Shown: positions 22,876 through 43,921, counted from the first letter of the stretch. The stretch is DNA of 64,000 nucleotides from a virus (IMGVR_UViG_3300032248_000400:1-64000); one strand, 5' to 3'. Numbers and translations: made by a program. Notes: generated by a model from the sequence alone, not told the origin.

Positions 22876-22879
22876 TTTT

Positions 22880-30565: not shown

Positions 30566-31405
30566 ATGATATTAAAAAAAGGCGATAATAACGAAAACGT
30601 AAAATTGATGCAGGAGAAACTTGGTATATCTCCAGCAGTAACAAACTTCGGACCTAAAACCGAAGCAGCAGTAAAAGAATTTCAAGCAAAAAACGGATTG
30701 CCAGCAGATGGTATCGTAGGTGATAAAACTTGGGCTATGATTATGTCGCAAGGACAATTTCAACCCAAAGAAGTTGTAGTTGCACCTGTTGTATCAACAG
30801 GCGGACTAAAATTAGATAAATTAAAAGGACATATTCCTGATGCAGTTATTGGAATGATACCTGCAGTAGCACAAAAGTTTCAAATAGATTCTGCATTGAG
30901 ATTAGCACACTTTTTAGCACAATGTGGACATGAAAGTGGTGGATTCCGTGCAACACAAGAAAATCTAAACTATTCAGCAAAGGGATTAATGGGTATATTT
31001 AAAAAATATTTCCCAGATGCAGCAACTGCGGCAGCTTACGAAAGAAAGCCAGAAAAGATTGCGAATAAAGTATATGCAAATAGAATGGGTAATGGACTCG
31101 AATCAAGTGGTGAAGGATATAAATTTCGTGGTCGGGGATATATCCAATTGACAGGAAAGGATAACTATACAGCATTTGGTAAATCAATCGGTGAAGATAT
31201 TCCATCTAATCCAGATGTAGTAGCATCTAAATATGCATTACTATCGGCTGCATGGTTCTTTAATAAGAATGGATTACATAAGATGGCAGATGAAGGTGCA
31301 AGTGATGTAGTTGTAACAAAAATTACTAAACGAGTTAATGGTGGAACAATTGGATTACCAGATAGGATAAAACATTTCAAAGAGTATTACGAATTATTAT
31401 CTTAA
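30566..31405 (+). CDS. endolysin: PG-binding domain plus GH19 domain
   Basis: FGPKTEAAVKEFQ...ADGIVGDKTW; HFLAQCGHESGG, FRGRGYIQLTG, VNGG..GL.DR. Confidence 0.93.
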   Translation: MILKKGDNNENVKLMQEKLGISPAVTNFGPKTEAAVKEFQAKNGLPADGIVGDKTWAMIMSQGQFQPKEVVVAPVVSTGGLKLDKLKGHIPDAVIGMIPAVAQKFQIDSALRLAHFLAQCGHESGGFRATQENLNYSAKGLMGIFKKYFPDAATAAAYERKPEKIANKVYANRMGNGLESSGEGYKFRGRGYIQLTGKDNYTAFGKSIGEDIPSNPDVVASKYALLSAAWFFNKNGLHKMADEGASDVVVTKITKRVNGGTIGLPDRIKHFKEYYELLS

Positions 31406-31424: not shown

Positions 31425-32111
31425 ATGAATCAACAATTAACTATAATTATCCCTTGTAAAAATGAAGGTAAAGGAATAATTGACGTAGTTAAATTAATTT
31501 TATCGCAAATTGATTGCAGAATAATAGTAGCTGATTCCTCAACTGAGGAATCTTCTATTTTGATATTAACAACATATCAATCAACTCATAACAATATAGA
31601 AATAATTAAAGGTGGATTACCCGCTATTGCTAGAAATAATGGAGCAAAATTAGTTACAACTCCTTATATTTTATTTTTAGATGCAGATACATACCCAGAA
31701 CAAAATACAATTAAAAATTCTATTGAAATTGCTATTAATTATAATTATGATTTAGTTACTTGCAAATTTAAAACTGATAAAAAATATAATTGGGTATATA
31801 GAATTTTTGATTTAATACAATGGTTTAGTTCAAAAACCAAACCATTTGCATTGGGAGGTTTTATGTTATTTAAAACAGAAGTATTTAATAAATTAGGAGG
31901 ATTTAATGAAGAAGATAAAATTGCAGAAGATTATCACATCAGTTCCAAAATTAAACCTAATCGTTTTAAAATCACAAATGATTTCGTTTATACTCCAAGT
32001 AGAAGATTTCATAAAAAAGGTATATGGTATATGATTGTATTAGCTTACAAATCATGGTTAAATAGAAATAATGATGAATTTTTTAAACAAGATTTTAACT
32101 ATTGGAAATGA
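31425..32111 (+). CDS. GT2-family glycosyltransferase
   Basis: IIIPCKNE, ARNNGA, LFLDAD, GGF.E...AED, SRRF. Confidence 0.9.
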   Translation: MNQQLTIIIPCKNEGKGIIDVVKLILSQIDCRIIVADSSTEESSILILTTYQSTHNNIEIIKGGLPAIARNNGAKLVTTPYILFLDADTYPEQNTIKNSIEIAINYNYDLVTCKFKTDKKYNWVYRIFDLIQWFSSKTKPFALGGFMLFKTEVFNKLGGFNEEDKIAEDYHISSKIKPNRFKITNDFVYTPSRRFHKKGIWYMIVLAYKSWLNRNNDEFFKQDFNYWK

Positions 32112-32854
32112 AAAATTACAGAGCAATAATTGTATCGGATTTACATTTAGGAACTAAAGACTCTAAAGCTGAAGAATTTTTAGAATTTTTAGAAAAACAT
32201 CCTACGGATCTTTTAATTTTAAATGGAGATATAATTGATGGCTGGGCATTGAACAGAGGAAGTAAGTGGAAAAAACAACATACTAAAGTATTAGGTAAAA
32301 TTTTAAAACTATCCAATAAAATACAAGTAATTTGGATTAGAGGTAATCACGATGAATTTATTCAGGAATTTATAGGATCACATTTTGGAGGCATAGAATT
32401 TAGAGAAGATTATAAAATTGAATATGCTGAACACATAGAATACGATAATTGGGAAAGAAAATGTTTTTATGTTTTTCATGGTGATGTGATTGATGTATTT
32501 ATAACCAAATATACGTGGTTATCTAAAATAGGAGCAGTTGGATATGATGTGGCATTAACTCTCAATCGTTGGTACAACAAATATCGTAAATGGCGTAAGT
32601 TACCATATCAATCTATATCTCAAAAAATAAAAAGTAGTGTAAAAACAGCAACAAACTATGTTAATGATTTTGAAGTAACTGCGCTTAAAATGGCAGAAAA
32701 AAAAGGATGTGATGGTGTTATTTGTGGACATATTCACCAACCAGAAGATAGAATTATTAATGGCAAACGATATCTCAATAGTGGAGATTGGGTAGAAAAT
32801 ATGAGTGCTATACTTATTGATACATATGGAAAAATTTACATCTATAATAATTAA
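32102..32854 (+). CDS. metallophosphoesterase, PlcP/LpxH-like
   Basis: SDLHLG, GDIIDGW, GNHDE, HGD, CGHIH, NSGDWVE. Confidence 0.88.
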   Translation: MEMKNYRAIIVSDLHLGTKDSKAEEFLEFLEKHPTDLLILNGDIIDGWALNRGSKWKKQHTKVLGKILKLSNKIQVIWIRGNHDEFIQEFIGSHFGGIEFREDYKIEYAEHIEYDNWERKCFYVFHGDVIDVFITKYTWLSKIGAVGYDVALTLNRWYNKYRKWRKLPYQSISQKIKSSVKTATNYVNDFEVTALKMAEKKGCDGVICGHIHQPEDRIINGKRYLNSGDWVENMSAILIDTYGKIYIYNN

Positions 32855-32857
32855 ACT

Positions 32858-32983
32858 ATGTATAAAATTTTAGATTTACTATTAAATTTCAACACAGGTA
32901 AAAAAATTAATTTTGAAAGAAGTATAGTATGGGGATTTATTATATTCTTTTTACTTTTTGCTTTGATTAAATTAATTGTATAA
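32858..32983 (+). CDS. 41 aa membrane peptide
   Basis: Hand-translated; C-term hydrophobic helix IVWGFIIFFFTFALIKLIV. Confidence 0.5.
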   Translation: MYKILDLLLNFNTGKKINFERSIVWGFIIFFLLFALIKLIV

Positions 32984-32987
32984 TTTA

Positions 32988-33019
32988 TTTGGTATATTAA
33001 AAAATTATTATTATATTAG
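32988..33019 (+). promoter_or_regulatory. Bacteroidota-type promoter
   Basis: TTTG 32988, N20, TATATTAG 33012. Confidence 0.5.
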
Positions 33020-33023
33020 TGTT

Positions 33024-33212
33024 ATGGAAAAATTTAAAATAACACTTAATGTAATAGTAGTTACATCAGTAATTGGATTGGCAGTATCATACGTTAGTCA
33101 GTTGTTGACTATTGTACCTGATATTAATTTTTTGGAAGCAGTTGGAATTTATTGTTTATGGACACCCATACATCATTATTTCAATTCATTTTCACAAAAA
33201 GATAATATCTAA
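33024..33212 (+). CDS. small 2-TM protein
   Basis: Start trimmed to ATG 33024; two hydrophobic segments. Confidence 0.55.
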   Translation: MEKFKITLNVIVVTSVIGLAVSYVSQLLTIVPDINFLEAVGIYCLWTPIHHYFNSFSQKDNI

Positions 33213-33261
33213 ACTGAAATATTTGGTTCTTTTTTTATACTTATAGTAGAGAATAACTACT

Positions 33262-33915
33262 ATGAAACAAAAAGTAACCGCACTGGCTATAAGCCTAAAG
33301 GAGAAACTATTACACACGTTTCTCATATCTGTCCTATTATTTGTAATAGGAGCATTAGCATTTCAATTATTTTTTGTATTTTTAGAAATTACGGGTAAAA
33401 CCGAATTTGCTTCACAAATCTCTAAAGAAATAAGCTGGAGAATGGATGGTACATTTAAAAACAATCCAAATAATATTTCCTATGTAGCAGAGAATCATAT
33501 TTGGGTTGAGAGTGTAACCAATGAAGTAAAAATTGGAAAATTAGCAGGAAATAGAAACTTAGCATTTGGTGTTAAAAATGTATTAGAGGAGTTTTTACAA
33601 GAGAAGGGGTATGATTTAACCCCTGCAGCTCCTTACAAATTACAAGTTCAAATTGTATATTTAGATGTTCTTACTACAAAAAAGAACATATCGGTTTTTC
33701 ATAAAAATGAGGAAGAAGTTGTTATCAGAATGAAGGGTATCCTTTATAAAGATGGCAAAAAAGATAAAGAGGTTATGATTGAAGAAAGTTCATCAGAAAT
33801 CTCTATGTCAACTCTCATAGTAGATGAAGGTGGAAAGTTCAATCAGACTTCATTGAGCAATGCTCTTAAAAAAGGTTCTGAAAAACTAATCACTAAACTA
33901 CTAGAACAAAAATGA
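33262..33915 (+). CDS. membrane-anchored CsgG/LptE-fold-like protein
   Basis: N-term TM helix; LAFGVKNVLEEFL and KFNQTSLSNALKK match 40041. Confidence 0.55.
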   Translation: MKQKVTALAISLKEKLLHTFLISVLLFVIGALAFQLFFVFLEITGKTEFASQISKEISWRMDGTFKNNPNNISYVAENHIWVESVTNEVKIGKLAGNRNLAFGVKNVLEEFLQEKGYDLTPAAPYKLQVQIVYLDVLTTKKNISVFHKNEEEVVIRMKGILYKDGKKDKEVMIEESSSEISMSTLIVDEGGKFNQTSLSNALKKGSEKLITKLLEQK

Positions 33916-35576
33916 AAAAACTATTATTAAGTTTGTCACTAATTTTAACAACATTTGTGACAAATGCGCAATTAACTGTCAATCAATCTGTAACACCAAC
34001 GACTGGATTAAAAGTGGGTGATACAATTTCTGTTAAATACACCATTGCAAAATCAACAACAACACCTCGTTATTTTTGGTTAAGGTATCAGTATAATAAT
34101 AAGGCTTTGACATTTGTTCCTAATAGCACTACATTTACACAGGGAACATCCGTTCAAACATATTATACACTTTGGAATAATTACAAATTCAATGCAAACG
34201 GAACCAAAGCGGCAACTCAGTTGTATGAGCAATACAAATTATCACCTTGGGGATATACATCTAATGTCGATTGGAATGCCGCACAAATAACTATTCAAAG
34301 AACGGATGCATCCATTGATGGTGATGCGGTAACTCAAAAATATATAATCAAAGATTTAGGTGATTATACTGATATTCATAAATTGGACTTATCTTATTCT
34401 ATTGATGCAGCTGGAGCATACATTTCCACAATTACAACAAATCCTGGTACCCTATCCCTATCAAATGTAATTGGTAATAGTTCTCAATTCAAAGTTAGAG
34501 TTTTATTTCCACAAGGATACGATATAAGTGCACATAGTGTTTCATTGATACCATTAACGACTACTGGTAATGTCAATTTGGCAGGAACACCTATTGCAAC
34601 AAAAACATTAGATGGTAGTGGTGAGGCGATTTTTACAACTGAAGTTAAAGTTGGTGATAGTTTAGCTGTAGTTGTAAATGCGGCATCTCAAAAAACGTTT
34701 ATGAATAATATCGTAACTGTATCGGATGCATATAAAGCATTCTTAGGAATATCTCAAACCGATATAATGGGAAATTCTACTTATTTTACAAGACCAGTTT
34801 TAGAAAAGAAAATTGCATATATAACAAAAGATAAGCCAGCATTTAGTGAAAGTGACTCATATTATATGTTCGCATATGTTATGGGAATTGATGTTGCAAA
34901 TAAAGCATACATACCAACAAATGCAGCACCTATAAATAATGTTGCAAATTATAAATGGTATAGTGGTTTGTTGAATGATAGTTGGTTAAATGGTACACCT
35001 ACATATAAAACAAAGATTACATCACCAATTCAAGCAGTTGATGCTGTATTTGCATGGGGTGGTGACTTAGATTGGTCTCACTCATCTGACCCAACTGAAA
35101 TAGCAGCTAGAATTGCAAGTGGTAACTATTCTAATTCAGCAAATAAGTTAGTTATTAATTCAATCAAATCAAGCGCTTATACATCTATGGAATATCAACA
35201 ACCTGTTTTAGAAAAAGCAACCCTGTCAGTTGCATCTAAATTGGAAAATGGTAAGGTTGTATTAATGACTACTTTAACAAAAGAAGGTTTAGCAGGATTG
35301 CAAGTTATTATGAACTACGATGATAGTAAATTATCATTAGATAATGTAGTATTTGATGCAGGTAGTTCAATAACAAACTTTTCAACTCATAACAATGGTA
35401 GGTTGACATTTGGTTCTATTGACCAATTAAAAACAGCTAGAATAAAAACTGGTACACCATACAAATTGATATTTACACCAAAGGAAACATTATCCAATAC
35501 ATCTGGATTGTTTTACTTTGTATTATCTGATGCAGTTGATGCAAACGGAAACAAGATTAATTTAATAATTGAGTAA
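33912..35576 (+). CDS. exported protein: cohesin-like, dockerin-like, cohesin-like
   Basis: SPI signal ending TNA-Q; KVGDTISV..RYQYNNKAL; IVTVSDAY; C-term LAGLQVIMNYDDSKL...DAVDANG. Confidence 0.65.
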   Translation: MKKLLLSLSLILTTFVTNAQLTVNQSVTPTTGLKVGDTISVKYTIAKSTTTPRYFWLRYQYNNKALTFVPNSTTFTQGTSVQTYYTLWNNYKFNANGTKAATQLYEQYKLSPWGYTSNVDWNAAQITIQRTDASIDGDAVTQKYIIKDLGDYTDIHKLDLSYSIDAAGAYISTITTNPGTLSLSNVIGNSSQFKVRVLFPQGYDISAHSVSLIPLTTTGNVNLAGTPIATKTLDGSGEAIFTTEVKVGDSLAVVVNAASQKTFMNNIVTVSDAYKAFLGISQTDIMGNSTYFTRPVLEKKIAYITKDKPAFSESDSYYMFAYVMGIDVANKAYIPTNAAPINNVANYKWYSGLLNDSWLNGTPTYKTKITSPIQAVDAVFAWGGDLDWSHSSDPTEIAARIASGNYSNSANKLVINSIKSSAYTSMEYQQPVLEKATLSVASKLENGKVVLMTTLTKEGLAGLQVIMNYDDSKLSLDNVVFDAGSSITNFSTHNNGRLTFGSIDQLKTARIKTGTPYKLIFTPKETLSNTSGLFYFVLSDAVDANGNKINLIIE

Positions 35577-37881
35577 GATGAAACAATTTGTTACTATTTT
35601 ATTTTTGTTAATTTCTTATTTAGGGTTTGGACAGTCTGTAACTGCTCCAGACCCTAAAACATATATTCTAAATACAACTGCACAAGATGGTAGTGGATTT
35701 GTATTGAGTGGGTTTAATGGTAGTGATATATTACTAACATCAATAAGTTTAATTAACCCATCAACAAATACAACATTTTATTTAAACACTACTACGGGAT
35801 TGACTGCGGCAATAGGATTTACATTGACCGGTAATAAAACTAGATTGGTGGTTACCGGAACAATGGTAAATATTAATACAGCATTGGCATCGTTAAAAAT
35901 TAATACGGGTTTAGTAAGTGGTGATGTAAACATATCAGTAGCAGCAACGGTAAATCCAACGGGATACTATTACAATGGAGTAAATGGGCATTTTTATAAA
36001 CCCGTATCAACCGGTGTATATTATTCAAATGCAAAAATAAATGCACATGCTACTACATTTAAAGGACAAGAAGGGTATTTATTAACACTTACATCTGCGA
36101 ATGAAGAAGATTTTATAAAATTAAATGTTCCACAAAATAATATTTGGTTTGCGGCAACTGATAAAGTAACTGATGGAACTTGGGTGATAGATGACGGGCC
36201 TGAAATTGGTACAGTAATGAAAACACAAAACGGACAACTTAACGGAAATATTGCAGGTGTATATAATAACTGGTGTGGCGGTGAACCAAATGGTAGTAAT
36301 CATAGTGAAGATTATCCCGTAGCAAAATGGAATGGTGCGGCTTGCTGGAATGATTTATCAAATAACTGGAATAATCCATATGTAATTGAATATGGAACTT
36401 GGAGCAACCCTGATGATGCAACATTTAGTGAATTTTATACTAACAGTGTATCTCATTCAAACGGAGAAACATTAAAAGCATTATTCACTTTTGATTTTGG
36501 AAGTGGTATAGATAAAACTAAATTCTTAGCACAGGTGTTTAAAAGAAATAATTTAACTTCTGCATGGCAATCAACAACTGGATATAAAGCATTGAGTGGT
36601 TTAGGTAAAATCTTTGTTTCAAATCAATTAGATACAGCAAAAATAGCATCTGGAACATATAAAGCAACTATATCACCAGTTGGAGCGGAATGGGCATATG
36701 TAAATCCAAATTTAACTTTTTTGAATGGTAATAGTAGATTATTGATTGATATGAGGCAAGTTGGTAATATAGACCCAACTAAAATACTAAACATAAAAAT
36801 ATTAGATGCATATGATGGACCGGTTACATATGTATCACATGATACTAATGGTTGGGCGATATATACCGTCCCATCACCATTAACAAAAGTAACCGATGGA
36901 ACTTCTGCATATAACCAATATATTAGAAATGTAAATGGAACAAATTCTGATTACGCTTTTCAATGTTCAGTTGGCATTGTACAACAAAATTCATACAAAC
37001 AACATAAATTAGAATTACAAGAATACGATAGTATACAATTAAAAACTTTGTATAATAGTATTGTGACTGTATCGGATGTTTATTTGGCATTTAAAGAATT
37101 AGCAAATAGTGGAATTATGGGTAACCAAACTGGTAATGAATTTACATATGGTATTCAATATAAAAACGCAGATATTAATAATGATAATGTATTTAATGAA
37201 GCCGATTGTTTTATATTATTACAAAACTTAATGGGTGTTAAAAATTTAATTAGTTCATATACTTTATCTAATACAATACATCTATACCCACAATCTACAT
37301 ATTACTCAATTGGTAAATCTAATTGGAATACATACTCATCTTATTTAGGAACTGCGTATCCATTTAATTTATTAAATAATGTAGTGAATTATGATTTTGA
37401 TGTATCAGTAGCATGGAAAGGTGATGTAAATTTATCACATTCACCAACTCCGCCATCAAATGGTGTAACAACAACTTCGGCATATGGAATAAAATCAAAA
37501 GTTATTAGTAATGAAATCAATGCATCAATTTTGACTGAAATAGTAGGTGATAGTGTTTATGCATATATTACATTAGACCCATTACAACAAAATGTAGTAG
37601 GCACACAATTTCAATTAAATTATGATAATGTAATGCTAAAGTTTAGTAATGTAAAATTTATAACAAAAGGTGCACCAATGAATTATGCAAATAATACTGG
37701 AACTTATGTTAATATTGGGTCTTTAATTACTGATGGTGCATCGATATTAGATAATAAAACGCAATATAAGATAGTATTCTCAGCAAAAGAAAAAATAGAA
37801 AATGTATTGGGGTTGATTTCAATAGGAATAACCGATGCTGTTAATCAAATTGGTTCACAATTAAAAATAAGAATGAACTAA
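35569..37881 (+). CDS. exported protein: C-type lectin, dockerin-like, cohesin-like
   Basis: Signal ending GFG-Q; GHFY...YL.T.TSANE..F...W...TD...GTW...YNNW.GGEPN...WNDL; ADINNDNVFNEAD; GTQFQLNYD. Confidence 0.78.
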   Translation: MSKMKQFVTILFLLISYLGFGQSVTAPDPKTYILNTTAQDGSGFVLSGFNGSDILLTSISLINPSTNTTFYLNTTTGLTAAIGFTLTGNKTRLVVTGTMVNINTALASLKINTGLVSGDVNISVAATVNPTGYYYNGVNGHFYKPVSTGVYYSNAKINAHATTFKGQEGYLLTLTSANEEDFIKLNVPQNNIWFAATDKVTDGTWVIDDGPEIGTVMKTQNGQLNGNIAGVYNNWCGGEPNGSNHSEDYPVAKWNGAACWNDLSNNWNNPYVIEYGTWSNPDDATFSEFYTNSVSHSNGETLKALFTFDFGSGIDKTKFLAQVFKRNNLTSAWQSTTGYKALSGLGKIFVSNQLDTAKIASGTYKATISPVGAEWAYVNPNLTFLNGNSRLLIDMRQVGNIDPTKILNIKILDAYDGPVTYVSHDTNGWAIYTVPSPLTKVTDGTSAYNQYIRNVNGTNSDYAFQCSVGIVQQNSYKQHKLELQEYDSIQLKTLYNSIVTVSDVYLAFKELANSGIMGNQTGNEFTYGIQYKNADINNDNVFNEADCFILLQNLMGVKNLISSYTLSNTIHLYPQSTYYSIGKSNWNTYSSYLGTAYPFNLLNNVVNYDFDVSVAWKGDVNLSHSPTPPSNGVTTTSAYGIKSKVISNEINASILTEIVGDSVYAYITLDPLQQNVVGTQFQLNYDNVMLKFSNVKFITKGAPMNYANNTGTYVNIGSLITDGASILDNKTQYKIVFSAKEKIENVLGLISIGITDAVNQIGSQLKIRMN

Positions 37882-38228
37882 TGAGGATTATTACGATTAT
37901 ATTATTTTTTCTTATATCATTATCAGCTTGTAAAAAAGTAGATATTATAATACCAAAAAAACCCATTACTAATATCTTTGATAATAACGAAGTGAGTATA
38001 AAGAATGGGCAGGAAATACAATTTGAATTAATAAAAGATGGAATATATACATTAACTTTAGGTGATGAAATAGGCAATCAAGTTTTGACAAGAGAAAGAT
38101 TTAATGGAAAAATTGGAATAAATAAAATGAAAATATACACCAAATCAATCTCAATTAAATATTTATATTTGTTATTAGAAGATGAAACTAAAACCAAAAT
38201 TGGAAAAACAACAATAATAATCAATTAA
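37881..38228 (+). CDS. lipoprotein resembling a stand-alone T9SS CTD
   Basis: Lipobox LSAC; beta-rich small domain ending K.TIIIN. Confidence 0.55.
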   Translation: MRIITIILFFLISLSACKKVDIIIPKKPITNIFDNNEVSIKNGQEIQFELIKDGIYTLTLGDEIGNQVLTRERFNGKIGINKMKIYTKSISIKYLYLLLEDETKTKIGKTTIIIN

Positions 38229-38229
38229 A

Positions 38230-38595
38230 ATGAAAAAAGTATTTTTAGTAGTGTTCGCATTAGTATTTTTATTTGGATGCAGAAAAATGGATATTCCCGT
38301 TATACCTGAAATAAATAAAGAACTTAACATTGAAGCTGCAGTTGGATTAAAGCTACAATCACCATTTGTAACAGAAGAAGTTGTTATGAATGTAAAAAGT
38401 GATGTGGCACAATCGGTTACTATTAAAATATTTGACATCGCTAATAGAGTAGTATCCAAAGAAACTATGAATGTAAACGTAGGTGATAATATACTAAAAG
38501 TATACACCAAAATACTACCTTCATCAGCATACAGAATTGGACTTTACAGCACTAAAGGAAGTGAGTTAGGTATAACCGATTTTAACAAATTGTAA
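38230..38595 (+). CDS. lipoprotein resembling a stand-alone T9SS type A CTD
   Basis: Lipobox LFGC; PFVTEE, VTIKIFDIANRVV, GDN, LPSSAYRI. Confidence 0.65.
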   Translation: MKKVFLVVFALVFLFGCRKMDIPVIPEINKELNIEAAVGLKLQSPFVTEEVVMNVKSDVAQSVTIKIFDIANRVVSKETMNVNVGDNILKVYTKILPSSAYRIGLYSTKGSELGITDFNKL

Positions 38596-38613
38596 ACTAA
38601 AAAAACAAATAAA

Positions 38614-38922
38614 ATGGCAGAAGAAGTAGAACAAGAATCAACCGGTAAATCATTTAAGAATATCATTATCGGTTTAGTAAGTACAGTAACATTAGGCATT
38701 GGTGGATTTATCACAAACAAATTAACAGGTGGTGATGATGAAAAAGCACCAGTACAACAAGCAGCACCAGTAATTAATATTCAAAATAACCAAACTCAAC
38801 AAGCGGGTGGTGGTAAAACTGTAATCATCAACAAAGGTGGTGATACTAAACCAACACAACCTGTAGTTAAACCTAAGAAGAAAGAAGGTGATGAGTTTAA
38901 AGAGAAAGAGCCTGAATGGTAG
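38614..38922 (+). CDS. bitopic membrane protein with Q/P/K-rich tail
   Basis: TM IIIGLVSTVTLGIGGFI. Confidence 0.65.
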   Translation: MAEEVEQESTGKSFKNIIIGLVSTVTLGIGGFITNKLTGGDDEKAPVQQAAPVINIQNNQTQQAGGGKTVIINKGGDTKPTQPVVKPKKKEGDEFKEKEPEW

Positions 38923-38946
38923 TTTAACTTATAAAAAATTATAAAA

Positions 38947-39546
38947 ATGGTAGAACAACCAACTGGGTTTAAAAACCTATTAAATAAAATGATGGCCAGA
39001 AGATGGTACATCACTGCATTAGTATTGGGTGGATTTATGTTAATAATTGGAGGCATATTTGCTGCTGTATTAGGAAAATCTCCAATAGCAGGGGAATGGA
39101 AAGAACTTCTATTATTATTATTAGGAGCATTCATAGGTTCTTATGGTAAAATCATCGACTATTGGTTTAGTGATACTGATAAGGATAAAATGTTAGTTCA
39201 GAAAATGGATGAGGAAGATGGTACTACATTGAGTAATACAGCAGATATGCCAAACAATCCAATTGTTCCAACGAATATATCTCCATTAGCATTACCAACA
39301 TCAGAACCAAATAATCCACAACATATTGAATCTCCTTTCAAACCTGAAACAAAAGTAGGTGTTGAAGTGGATGAAGATGGTGATGGTGTAATGGATGGTA
39401 TAGATAACGATGGTGATGGTAAAATAGATGAATACTTTACACATAGGCAATGTGAACACATCTGGGGTGATAGTGATGGTGATGGCGATTTAGAGTGTTT
39501 AAAATGCGGAAAAATAAAAGATGAAGATGCAGAGCAAGTGGGATAA
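38947..39546 (+). CDS. 2-TM holin-like protein with DxDxDG repeats and Cys/His finger
   Basis: Two TMs, IIDYWFS; DEDGDG, DNDGDG, DSDGDGD; CEH...CLKC. Confidence 0.6.
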   Translation: MVEQPTGFKNLLNKMMARRWYITALVLGGFMLIIGGIFAAVLGKSPIAGEWKELLLLLLGAFIGSYGKIIDYWFSDTDKDKMLVQKMDEEDGTTLSNTADMPNNPIVPTNISPLALPTSEPNNPQHIESPFKPETKVGVEVDEDGDGVMDGIDNDGDGKIDEYFTHRQCEHIWGDSDGDGDLECLKCGKIKDEDAEQVG

Positions 39547-39711
39547 TCAAAGAGAAGATAAGCTAGCTAGAATTATCAAAATGGAATTAGAAATAATAGA
39601 AGCAATCAGAAATGGCCATAAACCTGCTGATAATGATGAATTCAAAAGTTACAGAGAAGAAATGAATAGGTTACGAATTGAATTAAAACTAAAATAAAAA
39701 GGAGTAACACT

Positions 39712-39981
39712 ATGGGATTTATTAAAGAACTTTTCAAAGACAACAATGACATAAACGAAAAATCAGTAGTTGGTTTCTTGTCATTCACATGTATGGTAGC
39801 TGCATTAGCAGTAGACCTTATAACCGGTTGGATGGGTAGACCATTGGAAATCAATGAGTACATTTTTAACGGATTTTTAGTAATAACATTAGGTTCATTT
39901 GGCATTGCATCGGTTGATAAATACATTAACCGAAAAGCAGAACACGATGCAGCTAAGTTGGAAGCTGAAGAGGAAGGATAA
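39712..39981 (+). CDS. 2-TM holin-like protein
   Basis: INEKSVVGFLSF, two TMs; AAGGAG at 39699. Confidence 0.6.
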   Translation: MGFIKELFKDNNDINEKSVVGFLSFTCMVAALAVDLITGWMGRPLEINEYIFNGFLVITLGSFGIASVDKYINRKAEHDAAKLEAEEEG

Positions 39982-39989
39982 AAATTTAG

Positions 39990-40016
39990 AAAGGGAGTTA
40001 AATACTCCCTTTTTTT
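39990..40016 (+). terminator. intrinsic terminator
   Basis: AAAGGGAGT-TAAAT-ACTCCCTTT plus TTTT. Confidence 0.85.
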
Positions 40017-40040
40017 ATATTTATACTAAACAATTTATGT

Positions 40041-40763
40041 ATGGGAAAATTATTCACATTATTAAGTTTCTTTTTGTTAAGCGTTGTTGCCGCTAATTCG
40101 CAAACAATAGGAAGCACTAAAACAGAACAATACAAAGCATCATTTGAAACAGCAATTGATATTTCTCAATTTTTAGATTATGATGGACCACAAATTCCAA
40201 TTCAAATATTAAAGTGTGGTATATCTGATGAGATGTATGAAATGTATCCTGAACTTAAAGAAAAAAGAGTAGGATTGGGTGTTGCTAACATATCAATGGA
40301 GTATTTGGAAAACCTTAATCGTTTCAAATTTACCGAAGATAAAACAGAAATTAAGAATAGGATGGTTAAACAATTCCAAGCATCTCAAGCTGGTATTTCT
40401 GAAAACAAATTAGATGGTAGGGGAAAGATTAACTTAGCAAAATACTTTGTAACGATTGAGTGTTATGATTATTCCGTATCAGAAGATGAGACAGTAAATT
40501 TGAAAGATGGTATTAAAAATCTAATGGTGACTCGTATTGGTTTACAAGTTCGTTTTACTGATGCAGAAACAGGCGTAGTATTTGGAGCAAGTGGATTGGG
40601 TGAAGCTAAAACTACAAGAGAGTTAACCTTATTATCAGATGCAACTGTGGATCCAGTTAAGTTCAATCAATCAACTATCTCTATTGCAACTAAAAAAGCA
40701 TTGGATATAGCATGTGCAAGGATTTTGGATAGAATGATTAAAAAACAAATATTTACAAAATAA
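40041..40763 (+). CDS. CsgG/HfaB-like exported protein
   Basis: Signal ending ANS-Q; GLGVANI..EYL.N.NRF...E, LQVRFTDAETG. Confidence 0.72.
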   Translation: MGKLFTLLSFFLLSVVAANSQTIGSTKTEQYKASFETAIDISQFLDYDGPQIPIQILKCGISDEMYEMYPELKEKRVGLGVANISMEYLENLNRFKFTEDKTEIKNRMVKQFQASQAGISENKLDGRGKINLAKYFVTIECYDYSVSEDETVNLKDGIKNLMVTRIGLQVRFTDAETGVVFGASGLGEAKTTRELTLLSDATVDPVKFNQSTISIATKKALDIACARILDRMIKKQIFTK

Positions 40764-40769
40764 CAAACT

Positions 40770-40883
40770 ATGGGTAGCGCACCAAAAAAACCAAGACCAA
40801 TGAAATCTAGACGTAATGGATTAAAACATCGTGATAGAATTAATAAGAACAATGAAGTAATAAAAAAACTAAGTAAAAGTTAA
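40770..40883 (+). CDS. 37 aa basic peptide
   Basis: Hand-translated MGSAPKKPRPMKSRRNGLKHRDRINKNNEVIKKLSKS. Confidence 0.55.
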   Translation: MGSAPKKPRPMKSRRNGLKHRDRINKNNEVIKKLSKS

Positions 40884-40887
40884 ATCT

Positions 40888-41193
40888 ATGAAAAATTTTT
40901 TAATTTTATTTATTCTTGCATTTATGGGATGTACGACTACACAATATGTAATGGTAGACCCGAAAGATTCTACTAAACTTGTTGAAGTTCATAAAAGAAT
41001 AATTTATGATGATATGTATTTTAGTTCACCATTTTATTATAATTATGACTGGTATAATAGGAACTATTATTATCAACGACCAATGATTGTTCCAAATTAT
41101 AGACCTATAATAATTCATACACCCGATAGAGGACAACCGCATCATAGAGAAGGGAGTGCACCAATTAGAACATTTCCGAAAAGAAAAGATTAA
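40888..41193 (+). CDS. small Tyr/Pro-rich lipoprotein
   Basis: Lipobox FMGC. Confidence 0.65.
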   Translation: MKNFLILFILAFMGCTTTQYVMVDPKDSTKLVEVHKRIIYDDMYFSSPFYYNYDWYNRNYYYQRPMIVPNYRPIIIHTPDRGQPHHREGSAPIRTFPKRKD

Positions 41194-41198
41194 TACAA

Positions 41199-42578
41199 AT
41201 GAAAAGATACATACTCTGTTTGTTTGTATTAATTATTTGTGCATTAACTCAAAAAGTAAATGGACAAACGTATTCGCAAACATTCATAGATAAGTGTACA
41301 GGCGAAACCAAAATAGCAACTACCACATATATAAATGGTAATGCTTATGTATCTTTCTATAATCAATCAAAAGTATTCACGCCACTTGAAGTTCAAAGTG
41401 GAGTATTGCAAGCATGGTTACTTGCAACAAAATCATCATACGAAGCATTAACTTGTCCCGTTACAAACAATCCTATTGTTCAACAAACGGTAACACAGGC
41501 GGTAACACAAGCTACATCACAGGCTGCATCAACTGCAGCAACTACTGCAGCAACTGCCGCTGCAAGTGCAGCATCTTCATCCGCATCTGCAGCAGCAAGT
41601 AGTTCAGCATCCACTGCCGCTTCATCGGTAGTCGCCCCACCACAAACAAATGTAGCACCTACGGCGGCACCACCACCTGCAAGTGGTAGTAGTTCTACAC
41701 CACCTGCACAGAGTGGTAGTTCATCATCTTCATCCAGTAGTTCATCTTCATCATCTGAAAGTAAAACTGAAAGTAGTTCAACATCATCCGAGTCAAAGAG
41801 CGAGAGTAAATCGGAAAGCAAAACGGAAGAGAAAAAAGAAGAATCTAAATCTGAAAGTAAAGAAGAAAAAAAAGAAGAGAAGAAAACGGAATCTAAAAAA
41901 GAAGAAAAGAAGAAATCACAAAATATAAACCCAACATTATTAGCATCCGATTTAACAACGGCACAAAACCCTGATAAGAGATTTAATGTTATGTTATCAG
42001 TTGGGGTATCACATTCATCTATGGCAGGTGACAAATCATACTCTCTGAATGGTATAATTTGGAGTTCACTAAATCAATTTGCATTATCATCTGGCTATAC
42101 TAAAATGGAATTTGAAGATGGTAAGTTAAATGCTATACACTCATACGGAGTTACTGCCGCATACCTAATTGGAAACTACATGAATATGGTATCATATACT
42201 TACATAAAACCTGATCCAAAATATGGTACGTATGGTTGTAATGTTGGAGTGATAGGTTTACTTTTAAAAAATCAAAAAGGTGGATTTGATTTCAATGTGG
42301 TATCATCCGCTGTAGGATTTTGGACAAAGCAGTACCCTGTAAATAGGAAATTAGTTTTATCACCGCAAATATTTACAATGGTATCACCATTATCTTATAA
42401 TTCAAATGCAAATAATAGTACAAAAAATTCAAACGCAGGATTTCTAATTGGGTCATCTTTTGATTATAAATTAAGTAAGAGATTTGGTTTCAGTTTTAAT
42501 TACAAAGCAAATATGAATACACAGCCTGGCTCACCTATATTACATAATTTTTTAATAGGTAGTAGAGTTATTTTATAA
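41199..42578 (+). CDS. exported protein with low-complexity stalk and C-terminal OM beta-barrel
   Basis: Signal ending VNG-Q; Cys pair; A/T/S/P then S/E/K linker; amphipathic strands ending FLIGSRVIL. Confidence 0.65.
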   Translation: MKRYILCLFVLIICALTQKVNGQTYSQTFIDKCTGETKIATTTYINGNAYVSFYNQSKVFTPLEVQSGVLQAWLLATKSSYEALTCPVTNNPIVQQTVTQAVTQATSQAASTAATTAATAAASAASSSASAAASSSASTAASSVVAPPQTNVAPTAAPPPASGSSSTPPAQSGSSSSSSSSSSSSSESKTESSSTSSESKSESKSESKTEEKKEESKSESKEEKKEEKKTESKKEEKKKSQNINPTLLASDLTTAQNPDKRFNVMLSVGVSHSSMAGDKSYSLNGIIWSSLNQFALSSGYTKMEFEDGKLNAIHSYGVTAAYLIGNYMNMVSYTYIKPDPKYGTYGCNVGVIGLLLKNQKGGFDFNVVSSAVGFWTKQYPVNRKLVLSPQIFTMVSPLSYNSNANNSTKNSNAGFLIGSSFDYKLSKRFGFSFNYKANMNTQPGSPILHNFLIGSRVIL

Positions 42579-42636
42579 TCGTATATTTATTCAAAAGTTA
42601 TTCATTATTAACGAAATAAATCATTAATGAAAGAGG

Positions 42637-42867
42637 GTGAGGAACGGATTAAAAAAACTCCACGAAAGGAGAATGGAATACTCAAAAAACTTATTGCTGA
42701 TGTTAGCAATGTTTTTCAATCCATTCGGGTTCGATGCACTTTTCAAATTAACGATGGATTTGACAGGTTCTTATTGGATTACGGACGTAATATTTTATTG
42801 CGTTTCGGGTCTCTTATTTGGTTCATATTTATTATTATCAAATTATCAAAATAAAAAAACTCAATGA
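42637..42867 (+). CDS. small 2-TM protein
   Basis: GTG start; MFFNPFGFD...W.TDVIFY. Confidence 0.6.
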   Translation: MRNGLKKLHERRMEYSKNLLLMLAMFFNPFGFDALFKLTMDLTGSYWITDVIFYCVSGLLFGSYLLLSNYQNKKTQ

Positions 42868-43466
42868 AAAAAATAGTTGTTCTTATATCTTTACTTTTAA
42901 TTTCAATTTTTGTATGTTCACAAGATACAATTCGAGTAAAAAATAAAGTATTTGAAGTTTTATATTCACAAAACTTAGAACAACCACTTTGGATAAAATA
43001 CCATTCAACAAATAGACCTACAAATGTTAATAGGGGAGCAATGGATTTTTATAAAGAACCTAATATCAAAACATCAGATGCAGATGATTATAAAGCAAAT
43101 GTATACGATAAAGGACATGGTGCACCCGCTGCTTCATTCTCTGATAATATGGTAAACCTAAAACAAACATTCTCTTATCTGAATTGTATATTACAAAATC
43201 AATATCTTAATAGAGGTGAATGGAGATTGTTAGAAGAGCAAGAAAGAAGATGGGATGATTTAGAAAATCTGACAGTAATAATTAAAGTATTCTTTGATGA
43301 ATCTGTTAAAAGATTACCAACAAACGTAGCAATACCTTCTTATTTAGAAAAACACATATATTTTGAAAAATCTAAACAATGGAAATGTTTTGTATTTTTA
43401 AATCAAAAACCTGAATACCATTGGCAGCAATTAGAACTGACATGTGAACCAAACGCTCACAAATAA
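42864..43466 (+). CDS. secreted DNA/RNA non-specific endonuclease
   Basis: Signal peptide; YDKGHGAPAA, TF..LN...Q...LNRG.W..LE. Confidence 0.9.
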   Translation: MKKIVVLISLLLISIFVCSQDTIRVKNKVFEVLYSQNLEQPLWIKYHSTNRPTNVNRGAMDFYKEPNIKTSDADDYKANVYDKGHGAPAASFSDNMVNLKQTFSYLNCILQNQYLNRGEWRLLEEQERRWDDLENLTVIIKVFFDESVKRLPTNVAIPSYLEKHIYFEKSKQWKCFVFLNQKPEYHWQQLELTCEPNAHK

Positions 43467-43921
43467 TGTTTAGACCTAATCATTTACACTTATTAGTTAA
43501 GGGTTATTTAAAAACCCCACCTAAAACAGAAAAGATTCTTAATATCTTTTTTACACAATTAGTTAGTAATGTCGGAATGAAAGTAGTAGCCGGGCCTACA
43601 TCGGTTTATGTGAATGAGCCGGGTAATGAAGGTATAACGGGAACTGTCACCTTAGCTACATCGCACGCATCAATTCACGTATGGGATGCAGAGAAGCCAG
43701 CAATGTTTCAGTTCGACCTGTATAGTTGTTCAGAGTTTACACCATCGCAAGTTCTAAATGAAATTGATTATTGGTTTGGACTTGATTCAGCAAATTGGGT
43801 AATGATTGATAGAAACCATAGCAAATTCTTTGAACTATCACATGGTGAATGGAAACAAAAAGGGGCTGGGGATAAAACAGTCGTTAAAGAAGGAAAATTT
43901 TTTGATAGTAATGAGCGATAA
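43466..43921 (+). CDS. AdoMet decarboxylase-family proenzyme
   Basis: GITG...LATSHASIHVW, FDLYSCS. Confidence 0.85.
   Translation: MFRPNHLHLLVKGYLKTPPKTEKILNIFFTQLVSNVGMKVVAGPTSVYVNEPGNEGITGTVTLATSHASIHVWDAEKPAMFQFDLYSCSEFTPSQVLNEIDYWFGLDSANWVMIDRNHSKFFELSHGEWKQKGAGDKTVVKEGKFFDSNER

Follow-up and report, generated by a model that had tools for sequence, protein, structure and literature searches.

A conserved, predicted envelope-targeted gene module with a CsgG-superfamily protein in phages of putative Bacteroidota hosts

A block of co-oriented genes at positions 33262–43466 of a 64,000-nucleotide stretch of viral DNA (IMGVR_UViG_3300032248_000400:1-64000, hereafter the window) is well supported as a conserved, phage-specific module targeted to the host envelope. 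The block lies on the + strand and comprises 14 open reading frames (ORFs), tightly packed or overlapping, which we labelled g1–g14. The first-pass annotation had counted about 14 co-oriented genes over 10 kb; the orientation and packing stand, and 13 of the 14 ORFs are credible, the exception being g8 (39521–39697), a doubtful gene since its homolog is absent from every related locus compared. The window comes from a large freshwater phage and is part of a 73.6 kb virus fragment whose record is about 33% complete, and related contigs reach 238–335 kb. The sole cultured relatives found are the Flavobacterium myophages vB_FspM_immuto (hereafter immuto). As to function, we tentatively favour, with a rough probability of 0.42, a trans-envelope or outer-membrane complex of g6, g1, g10 and g12 that would position a variable glycan-binding scaffold (g2–g5) late in infection, masking receptors or clumping cells.

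Conservation and export of the block

In IMG/VR, 533 contigs encode relatives of g10, and the protein collection groups such relatives into 5,874 clusters at 90% identity. Co-conservation was counted with hidden Markov models (HMMs) on 42 loci that extend at least 8 kb upstream and at least 3 kb downstream. In all 42 loci g1, a g3-type cohesin protein, g6, g10 and g12 are present in constant order; the other genes range from g7 (36 loci), g2 and g4 (30 each), g5 (28) and g9 (25) down to g14 (11) and g11 (6). In immuto, gp012–gp019 run in the order nuclease, lectin, gp014, cohesin, g6-like, g10 (53% identity), a protein like the N-terminal domain of g12, and g1-like. In seven contigs (L083 and L090-L095) of a marine lineage, which has a Mu-like capsid gene, a cohesin protein is followed in constant order by a 290-residue protein, a bitopic 126-residue protein, a CsgG-like lipoprotein, a protein like the g12 N-domain and a g1-like protein. 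The ordered core therefore spans three phage lineages, which bears out the gene-order conservation that the first-pass annotation proposed to check. Within the block, g10 evolves most slowly, with 86–97% identity over 80 viral loci compared with 25–80% for g1, g2, g3, g6, g7 and g12; picking the loci by g10 similarity inflates this contrast, and the comparison with immuto ranks the genes alike.

The close g10 family is essentially restricted to viruses. A profile search of genome contigs with g10 returned only two short contigs (L087 and L088, 86–91% identity), and these, binned as 'Thiobacillus' and 'Micavibrio' metagenome-assembled genomes, are most likely mis-binned phage DNA. A nucleotide search of the block against GenBank phages gave no match, and NCBIfam gave nothing significant. 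In PHROGs, 11 of the 14 genes had no match and the remaining few had weak or low-complexity ones; none of the block proteins showed likeness to tail, baseplate or other structural PHROGs.

Export signals were called by a hydropathy and pattern heuristic. A classical n-h-c signal for signal peptidase I (SPI), with Gln directly after the predicted cleavage site, is carried by g2, g3, g10, g12 and g14; lipoboxes are found in g4 (LSAC), g5 (LFGC) and g11 (FMGC); and a signal anchor or one or two transmembrane (TM) helices are predicted in g1, g6, g7, g9 and g13. The signals are retained among homologs. The lipobox is kept in 34 of 36 homologs of g4, 36 of 36 of g5 and 10 of 10 of g11, and the SPI signal with Gln at +1 in 36/37, 48/49, 63/76, 51/69 and 11/12 homologs of g2, g3, g10, g12 and g14, respectively; homologs that lack it are mostly start-codon miscalls. 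The immuto and marine homologs show a matching pattern. Gln at +1 is the 'Q-rule' of Bacteroidetes signal peptidase I substrates (PMC5837995), so these signals support both real export and a Bacteroidota host. The predicted signals show that nearly every block product is exported through Sec into the envelope of a Bacteroidota host. The earlier description of nearly all genes as carrying SPI signals, lipoboxes or TM helices agrees with these heuristic calls and their retention in homologs, and its view of the products as envelope rather than tail proteins fits both the kept signals and the lack of tail or baseplate likeness in PHROGs.

The constant core: g10, g1, g12 and g6

The most conserved gene of the block, g10 (40041–40763), encodes a secreted protein that, judged by its model and by profile comparison, is a member of the CsgG superfamily; as a curli-type channel it is only a candidate. 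g10 itself has no Pfam match. A search of 1.8 billion cluster representatives gave 207 clusters of relatives, and the full-length distant homologs are mostly lipoproteins from GC-rich bacteria. Among the distant homologs, 14 of 33 match Pfam CsgG (PF03783; best 1.9e-17) and six match LpoB. The AlphaFold2 model of g10 has a mean predicted local distance difference test (pLDDT) value of 83, and Foldseek places CsgG on top (E 2e-6). In VIA, the top eight entries are all CsgG, with Z 10.7–12.3 and a root-mean-square deviation (rmsd) of 3.6–4.5 over 158–175 aligned residues, followed by PelC (Z 9.8), then PelBC, FlgT and LptE (about 8) and TraT (6.8). Comparison of the g10 family with Escherichia coli CsgG by hhalign gives a probability of 93% (E 3e-7, 223 columns) and places the conserved g10 residues Tyr69-Pro70 opposite the constriction-loop Tyr-Pro of CsgG.

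Compared with E. coli CsgG (PDB 4uv2, 4uv3 and 6l7a), g10 has the same fold over about 160–175 residues (Z 10.7–12.3), but it is about 40 residues shorter, has an SPI rather than a lipoprotein signal and short, charged hairpin regions, and is accompanied by no CsgE, CsgF, CsgA or CsgB. First, no lipobox was found in g10 or its close phage relatives, which carry an SPI-type signal ending in S/A-Q; the lipobox Cys is present in the distant bacterial homologs and in the marine phage homolog. Second, the region aligned with TM1 of CsgG is five residues shorter and contains invariant acidic residues (SEDETVNLKDG), and that aligned with TM2 is about ten residues shorter; the g10 model has a single long hairpin (135–174). 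Owing to the missing lipobox and the short charged hairpin regions, we file g10 in the superfamily and not as a demonstrated channel. Third, hhalign found no likeness to E. coli CsgE or CsgF (probability below 1%) for g1, g4/g5, g6, g7, g9, g11 or the g12 N-domain, and no block protein matches a curlin repeat in Pfam, in agreement with the first-pass statement that curli subunits and CsgE/F are not recognizable here.

The product of g1 (33262–33915) combines an N-terminal TM anchor with an α/β domain resembling LptE, PelC and YajG. It matches Pfam Lipoprotein_16 (YajG) at 25.4 bits against a cut-off of 25, as do 19 of 30 homologs, and two of the 30 have weak TraT matches. With its AlphaFold2 model (pLDDT 77), Foldseek returns Cj1090c/LptE at 1.6e-5, many further LptE entries, GNA1162 and PelC (TMt 0.60, rmsd 3.5). 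No lipobox was found in g1, which has an uncleaved-looking TM helix (residues 21–39); other clades have short signal peptides, also without a lipobox. Direct profile comparison of g1 with g10 recovers only a shared C-terminal helix motif (probability 17–24%). The marine g1-like protein matches the g1 profile (hhalign 88%, E 3e-6), a wide CsgG-like HMM (7e-14) and its own neighbouring g10-like protein (BLASTP 1e-7); it thus bridges both families, making g1 and g10 distant paralogs by a transitive link. The two had been introduced as CsgG-fold paralogs: this description fits g10, which is CsgG-like over its full length, whereas g1 is nearest to LptE, PelC and YajG and is tied to g10 only transitively. 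In one bacterial contig (L085:7357-8708), two CsgG-like genes stand side by side after two paralogous proteins of about 225 residues; one of the CsgG-like products has an SPI signal and the other is a lipoprotein. The pair mirrors the phage g1/g10 pair, and this contig has no further partner in common with the phage block.

The third core protein, g12 (41199–42578), consists of a signal peptide, an N-domain of about 85 residues with two conserved Cys, a linker that is A/S-rich, then S-rich and then E/K-rich, and a conserved C-terminal domain of about 215 residues. The C-terminal domain is a probable outer-membrane β-barrel on the basis of its predicted fold: ESM Atlas matches it to Phenol_MetA_deg, BBP2_2 and KdgM/OmpL barrels at TM scores of 0.68–0.75 and to TPR-plus-barrel proteins at 0.61–0.65. 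A PDB sequence search with the barrel gave no match, and sequence-profile searches of the PDB yielded nothing useful for g10, g1, g2 or this barrel. The Atlas matches, together with a weak DUF5777 signal, speak for the stalked β-barrel already proposed for this gene. The N-domain has only viral look-alikes in ESM Atlas and no known fold; its two widely spaced Cys suggest folding within the periplasm rather than threading to the outside. It is conserved in immuto gp018 and in a marine 329-residue protein, each encoded right after the g10 homolog. In hhalign, the g12 barrel does not match the C-termini of these two proteins significantly; they agree with g12 in architecture and in the terminal Phe. 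In 20 fetched loci, a stand-alone g12-barrel paralog of about 300 residues separates the g3 and g4 homologs (22 HMM matches; for example L019:5815-6738, L040:6195-7118, L073:5080-6003 and L070:6737-7537); it does not occur in the window, from which it was either lost or always absent.

The last member of the constant core outside the cohesin proteins, g6 (38614–38922), is predicted to be a bitopic (type II) membrane protein; its periplasmic part is rich in P and Q, and the motif KKEGDEFKE..W is conserved at its C-terminus. Its immuto counterpart gp016, directly 5' of the g10 homolog, matches at 7e-18.

A structural parallel to this arrangement is offered by PelC–PelB (PDB 5t0z and 9h80) and LptE–LptD, in which a small α/β ring or plug stands beside an outer-membrane barrel: g1 and g10 match the former component, and g12 is always adjacent. 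By this analogy, g10 is probably a ring or adaptor in the periplasm that stands next to a barrel as PelC and LptE do, rather than a curli-type channel.

The glycan-binding scaffold, accessory genes and flanks

The g2 (33912–35576) and g3 (35569–37881) products are both secreted and are homologous over their C-terminal approximately 290 residues (hhalign 99.6%), which form a half with dockerin-like and cohesin-like parts. g2 matches the immuto cohesin protein gp015 at 5e-11. Pfam Cohesin (PF00963) is matched by ten of 24 g3 orthologs (best 3.6e-5) and by neither g2 nor g3 themselves, and a PDB profile search gave a weak hit to the scaffoldin cohesin 4ums (E 0.047). The lectin assignment of g3 is solid at the sequence level, and sugar binding is predicted: g3 matches Lectin_C (PF00059) at 23.5 bits against a cut-off of 22.6, as do 23 of the 24 orthologs; its EPN (residues 239–241, 36283–36291) and WND (residues 260–262, 36346–36354) motifs are present; and its profile retrieves mannose-binding proteins from the PDB. 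Some g3 orthologs carry PA14, GLEYA or LCCL modules. g3 also has a dockerin-like loop, DINNDNVFNEAD (37171–37206), with one canonical DxNxDxxxxxxD and a degenerate first repeat; in g2, both dockerin repeats are degenerate.

The adjoining g4 (37881–38228) and g5 (38230–38595) encode small β-sandwich lipoproteins, and their HMMs cross-match at 8e-15, which identifies them as paralogs. In this family, 19 of 40 members match DUF3244 and 11 of 40 match Por_Secre_tail (best 0.0014), all below threshold; for g5 itself the values are 0.0025 and 0.066, respectively. Of the earlier label 'CTD-like' lipoproteins (CTD, C-terminal domain), the lipoprotein half is upheld by the lipoboxes, whereas the CTD half has only these sub-threshold matches behind it. 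A kinship of g4 and g5 with the cohesin half of g2 was also considered, and the comparison showed no relation.

At the 3' end, g14 (42864–43466) encodes a secreted DNA/RNA non-specific endonuclease with an SPI signal and Gln at +1. Its match to Pfam Endonuclease_NS (PF01223) at 6.2e-22 confirms the secreted nuclease named in the first-pass annotation; the catalytic motifs DKGH (43107–43127) and N..G.W are present, and its homolog gp012 (47% identity) heads the immuto cluster.

The remaining genes encode small envelope proteins. g7 (38947–39546) has two TM helices, a conserved acidic tail of DxDxDG repeats and a C..H...CxxC (Cys/His) cluster; the positive-inside rule would place this tail in the cytoplasm, an unusual location for Ca-type loops. 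g9 (39712–39981) encodes 89 residues with two TM helices and a charged C-terminus. These features, together with the endolysin gene that starts 11–18 nucleotides after the g9 homolog in two relatives (L018 and L081), make g9 a candidate class II holin by its sequence; no holin family in Pfam, PHROGs or NCBIfam matches it. g11 (40888–41193) is a variable accessory gene for a Tyr/Pro-rich lipoprotein, and g13 (42637–42867) is a variable gene for a small membrane protein, with homologs in six loci. The gap between g10 and g11 contains a 37-codon ORF (40771–40884) for a very basic peptide (MGSAPKKPRPMKSRRNG...).

Late-type motifs had been reported at 33237, 40017 and 42583. The motif TTTTATAYTTATA occurs exactly at 33233 and 40013, corresponding to the first two, and again at 22876; the copy at 42583 is imperfect, and the eight copies found in the window, with 4.3 expected, do not stand out from chance. 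Upstream of g10, a terminator hairpin (GGGAGT..ACTCCC followed by a T run) and then the promoter-like TTTTTATATTTATA occupy 39992–40025 on the + strand; hairpin, with compensatory stem changes, and motif are conserved in about 18 distinct relatives, and g10–g12 consequently look like a transcription unit of their own.

On the 5' side, about 20 kb of nucleotide-sugar genes are followed by an endolysin gene, a family 2 glycosyltransferase (GT2) and a metallophosphoesterase. Between 15069 and 32854 the window encodes a DegT aminotransferase, a GNAT protein, two methyltransferases, a hexapeptide transferase, an RmlD-like protein, a GHMP kinase, a cupin, a cytidylyltransferase and the GT2, the last with weak matches to GtrB-like (O-antigen-conversion) PHROGs. 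This run could serve host surface remodelling, or DNA or virion glycosylation. The endolysin gene (30566–31405, + strand; PG_binding_1 and GH19 domains, with Pfam and PHROG endolysin matches) lies outside the block and is linked to it in relatives. The GT2 and metallophosphoesterase genes (31425–32854) stand between endolysin and g1 here, and between g9 and g10 in two relatives (L002:8501-9986 and L076:10729-12140); the pair thus moves as a cassette, and the block appears reshuffled around fixed sub-units. Immediately 5' of g1, g0 (32976–33212, + strand) encodes a small protein with one TM helix, and homologs occur upstream of g1 in L002, L015, L026 and L076. After g14, an S-adenosylmethionine decarboxylase gene (speH-like, 43466–43921) follows, as in L002, L026, L062, L067 and L076; speH has also been noted in freshwater pelagimyophages (PMC7029224).

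Possible functions and known systems

In the arrangement that we favour, the bitopic g6 and g1, which is membrane-anchored in this phage, would reside in the inner membrane, and the soluble, CsgG-like g10, whose fold class forms rings, would join them in the periplasm. g12 would supply a barrel in the outer membrane, and a long disordered linker would tether its N-domain. The complex would be produced at about the time of lysis and would hold or position a variable, Ca-dependent glycan-binding scaffold composed of g2 and g3 with the β-sandwich lipoproteins g4 and g5. The scaffold may bind host-type envelope or surface glycans, leading either to receptor masking (exclusion, or protection of progeny from debris) or to clumping of sibling cells, and the secreted nuclease g14 would clear DNA.

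Several observations weigh against this arrangement. The barrel call for g12 comes from a low-confidence Atlas model (whole-protein pLDDT 0.52), and Pfam DUF5777 is matched below cut-off by four of 36 members of the g12 family. The type IX secretion system CTD (Por_Secre_tail, PF18962) was not found in g2, g3 or the 24 orthologs; having neither this domain nor a known route across the outer membrane, g2 and g3 could, as far as their sequences indicate, stay in the periplasm. The first-pass inference of a multi-protein surface complex for adhesion or aggregation, superinfection exclusion or egress is accordingly supported in part: co-conservation and envelope targeting stand, whereas surface exposure and each of the named functions are possibilities. 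Dockerin_1 (PF00404) is matched weakly, by g3 at E 0.066 and by two of 24 orthologs at 0.018. The earlier wording, two dockerin/cohesin-like proteins of which one has a C-type lectin, accordingly keeps its lectin and, through the ten matching orthologs, its cohesin part, and is weakest in its dockerin part. Finally, the linkage to endolysin and holin-like genes fits a lysis role equally well.

Such a role is the alternative that survives best, and we regard it as somewhat unlikely. The block would then be a lysis or egress machine in which g9 is the holin, g6 with g10, g1 and g12 breaches or conditions the outer membrane in a spanin-like or lysis-timing manner, the nuclease thins released DNA, and the lectins localize the complex through peptidoglycan or envelope glycans. 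An endolysin family member lies directly 5' of g1 in 22 of the 43 loci with the region visible, the endolysin adjoins g9 in L018 and L081, and it lies 1.9 kb upstream of the block in the window; the marine lineage also has a same-strand endolysin and a holin-like gene upstream. The first-pass annotation mentions neither the endolysin linkage nor the holin-like g9, which together raise this reading. g9 has the anatomy of a class II holin, g6 has an i-spanin-like topology and a conserved C-terminal motif, and a timing role has been proposed for the CsgGF pair of phage Melnitz (PMC9004378). However, only seven of the 22 linked endolysin genes are on the same strand and 15 are divergent, none is nearby in 21 of the 43 loci, and that of immuto is 8 kb away. 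Furthermore, the endolysin alone matches a lysis PHROG, g9 is missing in 17 of 42 loci, and variable lectin, PA14 and GLEYA modules with cohesin/dockerin parts are unexpected in a lysis device. A more specific proposal, that the g6–g10–g12–g1 core is a new trans-envelope device of Bacteroidota phages, aimed at host envelope glycans by the lectin/cohesin scaffold and coupled to holin and endolysin, that replaces spanins or controls the last, outer-membrane step of lysis, seems to us distinctly unlikely; its components would be a soluble CsgG-like ring, the LptE-like paralog and a tethered mini-barrel. In the comparison with spanins, g6 has type II topology with a P/Q-rich periplasmic part in place of a coiled coil, and g4 and g5 are predicted folded β-sandwiches missing in 12 of the 42 loci, all of which retain g6.

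Less probable again is a glycan or lipid conduit, in which g10 and g1 would serve g12 as PelC serves PelB or LptE serves LptD, exporting or inserting a phage polysaccharide or modified lipopolysaccharide (LPS) that the upstream nucleotide-sugar genes would make and the lectins bind. Both g10 and g1 have PelC, PelBC and LptDE among their top structural matches, TPR-plus-barrel proteins are among the Atlas neighbours of the g12 barrel, and the approximately 20 kb of sugar-nucleotide genes with the weakly GtrB-like GT2 lie upstream. The fold, however, is common to many unrelated ring lipoproteins, and genes for an inner-membrane synthase, a flippase or a Wzx/Wzy-type protein were not seen. g12 differs from PelB and LptD in its phage-only N-domain and disordered linker, and its barrel of about 215 residues is far below their size. 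The immuto and marine lineages keep the core without an adjacent sugar cluster, and no polysaccharide or LPS machinery is linked to it there.

A curli-type (type VIII) secretion system, with g10 as a nonameric channel secreting an unfolded substrate such as the A/S-rich part of g12 as fibres, is very unlikely. It would account for the full-length CsgG fold match (Z up to 12.3) and the aligned Tyr-Pro of the constriction loop, and complete phage systems of this type are known in pelagiphages (PMC9599517). It sits poorly with a phage clade that has no lipobox, with the shortened TM1 and TM2 regions and their invariant acidic residues, and with a CsgE/CsgF match probability below 1% and no Pfam curlin repeat match among the cluster proteins. 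The idea that the genes encode virion parts, or are unrelated morons that happen to stand in a row, deserves hardly any weight: lectin and Ig-like modules are indeed found on the fibres and capsid decorations of phages, and the region is an accessory part of the genome, but cleavable signals, lipoboxes and the outer-membrane barrel are kept across homologs, no structural PHROG matches, and the order is fixed in 42/42 loci and three lineages.

Published CsgG-based phage modules come from pelagimyophages (PMC7029224), pelagiphages with a full type VIII system (PMC9599517) and Melnitz (PMC9004378); the roles proposed for them are aggregation ('sibling capture'), uptake or lysis timing. As here, a CsgG-family gene stands in a conserved multi-gene envelope block, which lies in the accessory part of the genomes of aquatic phages, T4-like ones among them. 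Those modules contain a recognizable CsgG and CsgF, later CsgA/B, FecR and adenylate cyclase, and are of alphaproteobacterial origin; the present block, by contrast, points to a Bacteroidota host and surrounds g10 with a paralog that resembles LptE, a protein that joins an N-domain to a barrel, a bitopic protein and lectins with cohesin/dockerin parts. The term 'undescribed' in the first-pass annotation is hence justified for partners and host phylum, and not for phage CsgG modules as such.

Two further systems invite comparison. The fold of TraT (PDB 9fsm) is broadly the same, with a weak match (g10 Z 6.8), and the present module has many more parts. TraT is a ring-forming surface-exclusion lipoprotein that excludes incoming DNA donors, and Llp of T5 and Cor are phage lipoproteins that mask receptors. 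Cohesin–dockerin scaffolds, both cellulosome-like and non-cellulosomal, likewise combine a Ca loop, a β-sandwich and carbohydrate-binding modules, as g2 and g3 do; the phage-encoded proteins differ in having no enzymes attached, one canonical loop and both modules on the same chain, and in their Gram-negative host. A literature search for phage cohesin/dockerin lectin modules found nothing relevant.

Late phage remodelling of the Gram-negative envelope, whether by exclusion, masking, aggregation or breaching of the outer membrane, is poorly understood beyond E. coli models, and we know of nothing comparable characterized in Bacteroidota. The present module would reuse the CsgG/LptE/PelC fold without a lipid anchor and bring a cohesin/dockerin/lectin scaffold into a phage, and the sequence constraint on g10 suggests a strongly constrained action on the host envelope. 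The cultured relative immuto, whose host is Flavobacterium sp. LMO8, makes the question testable.

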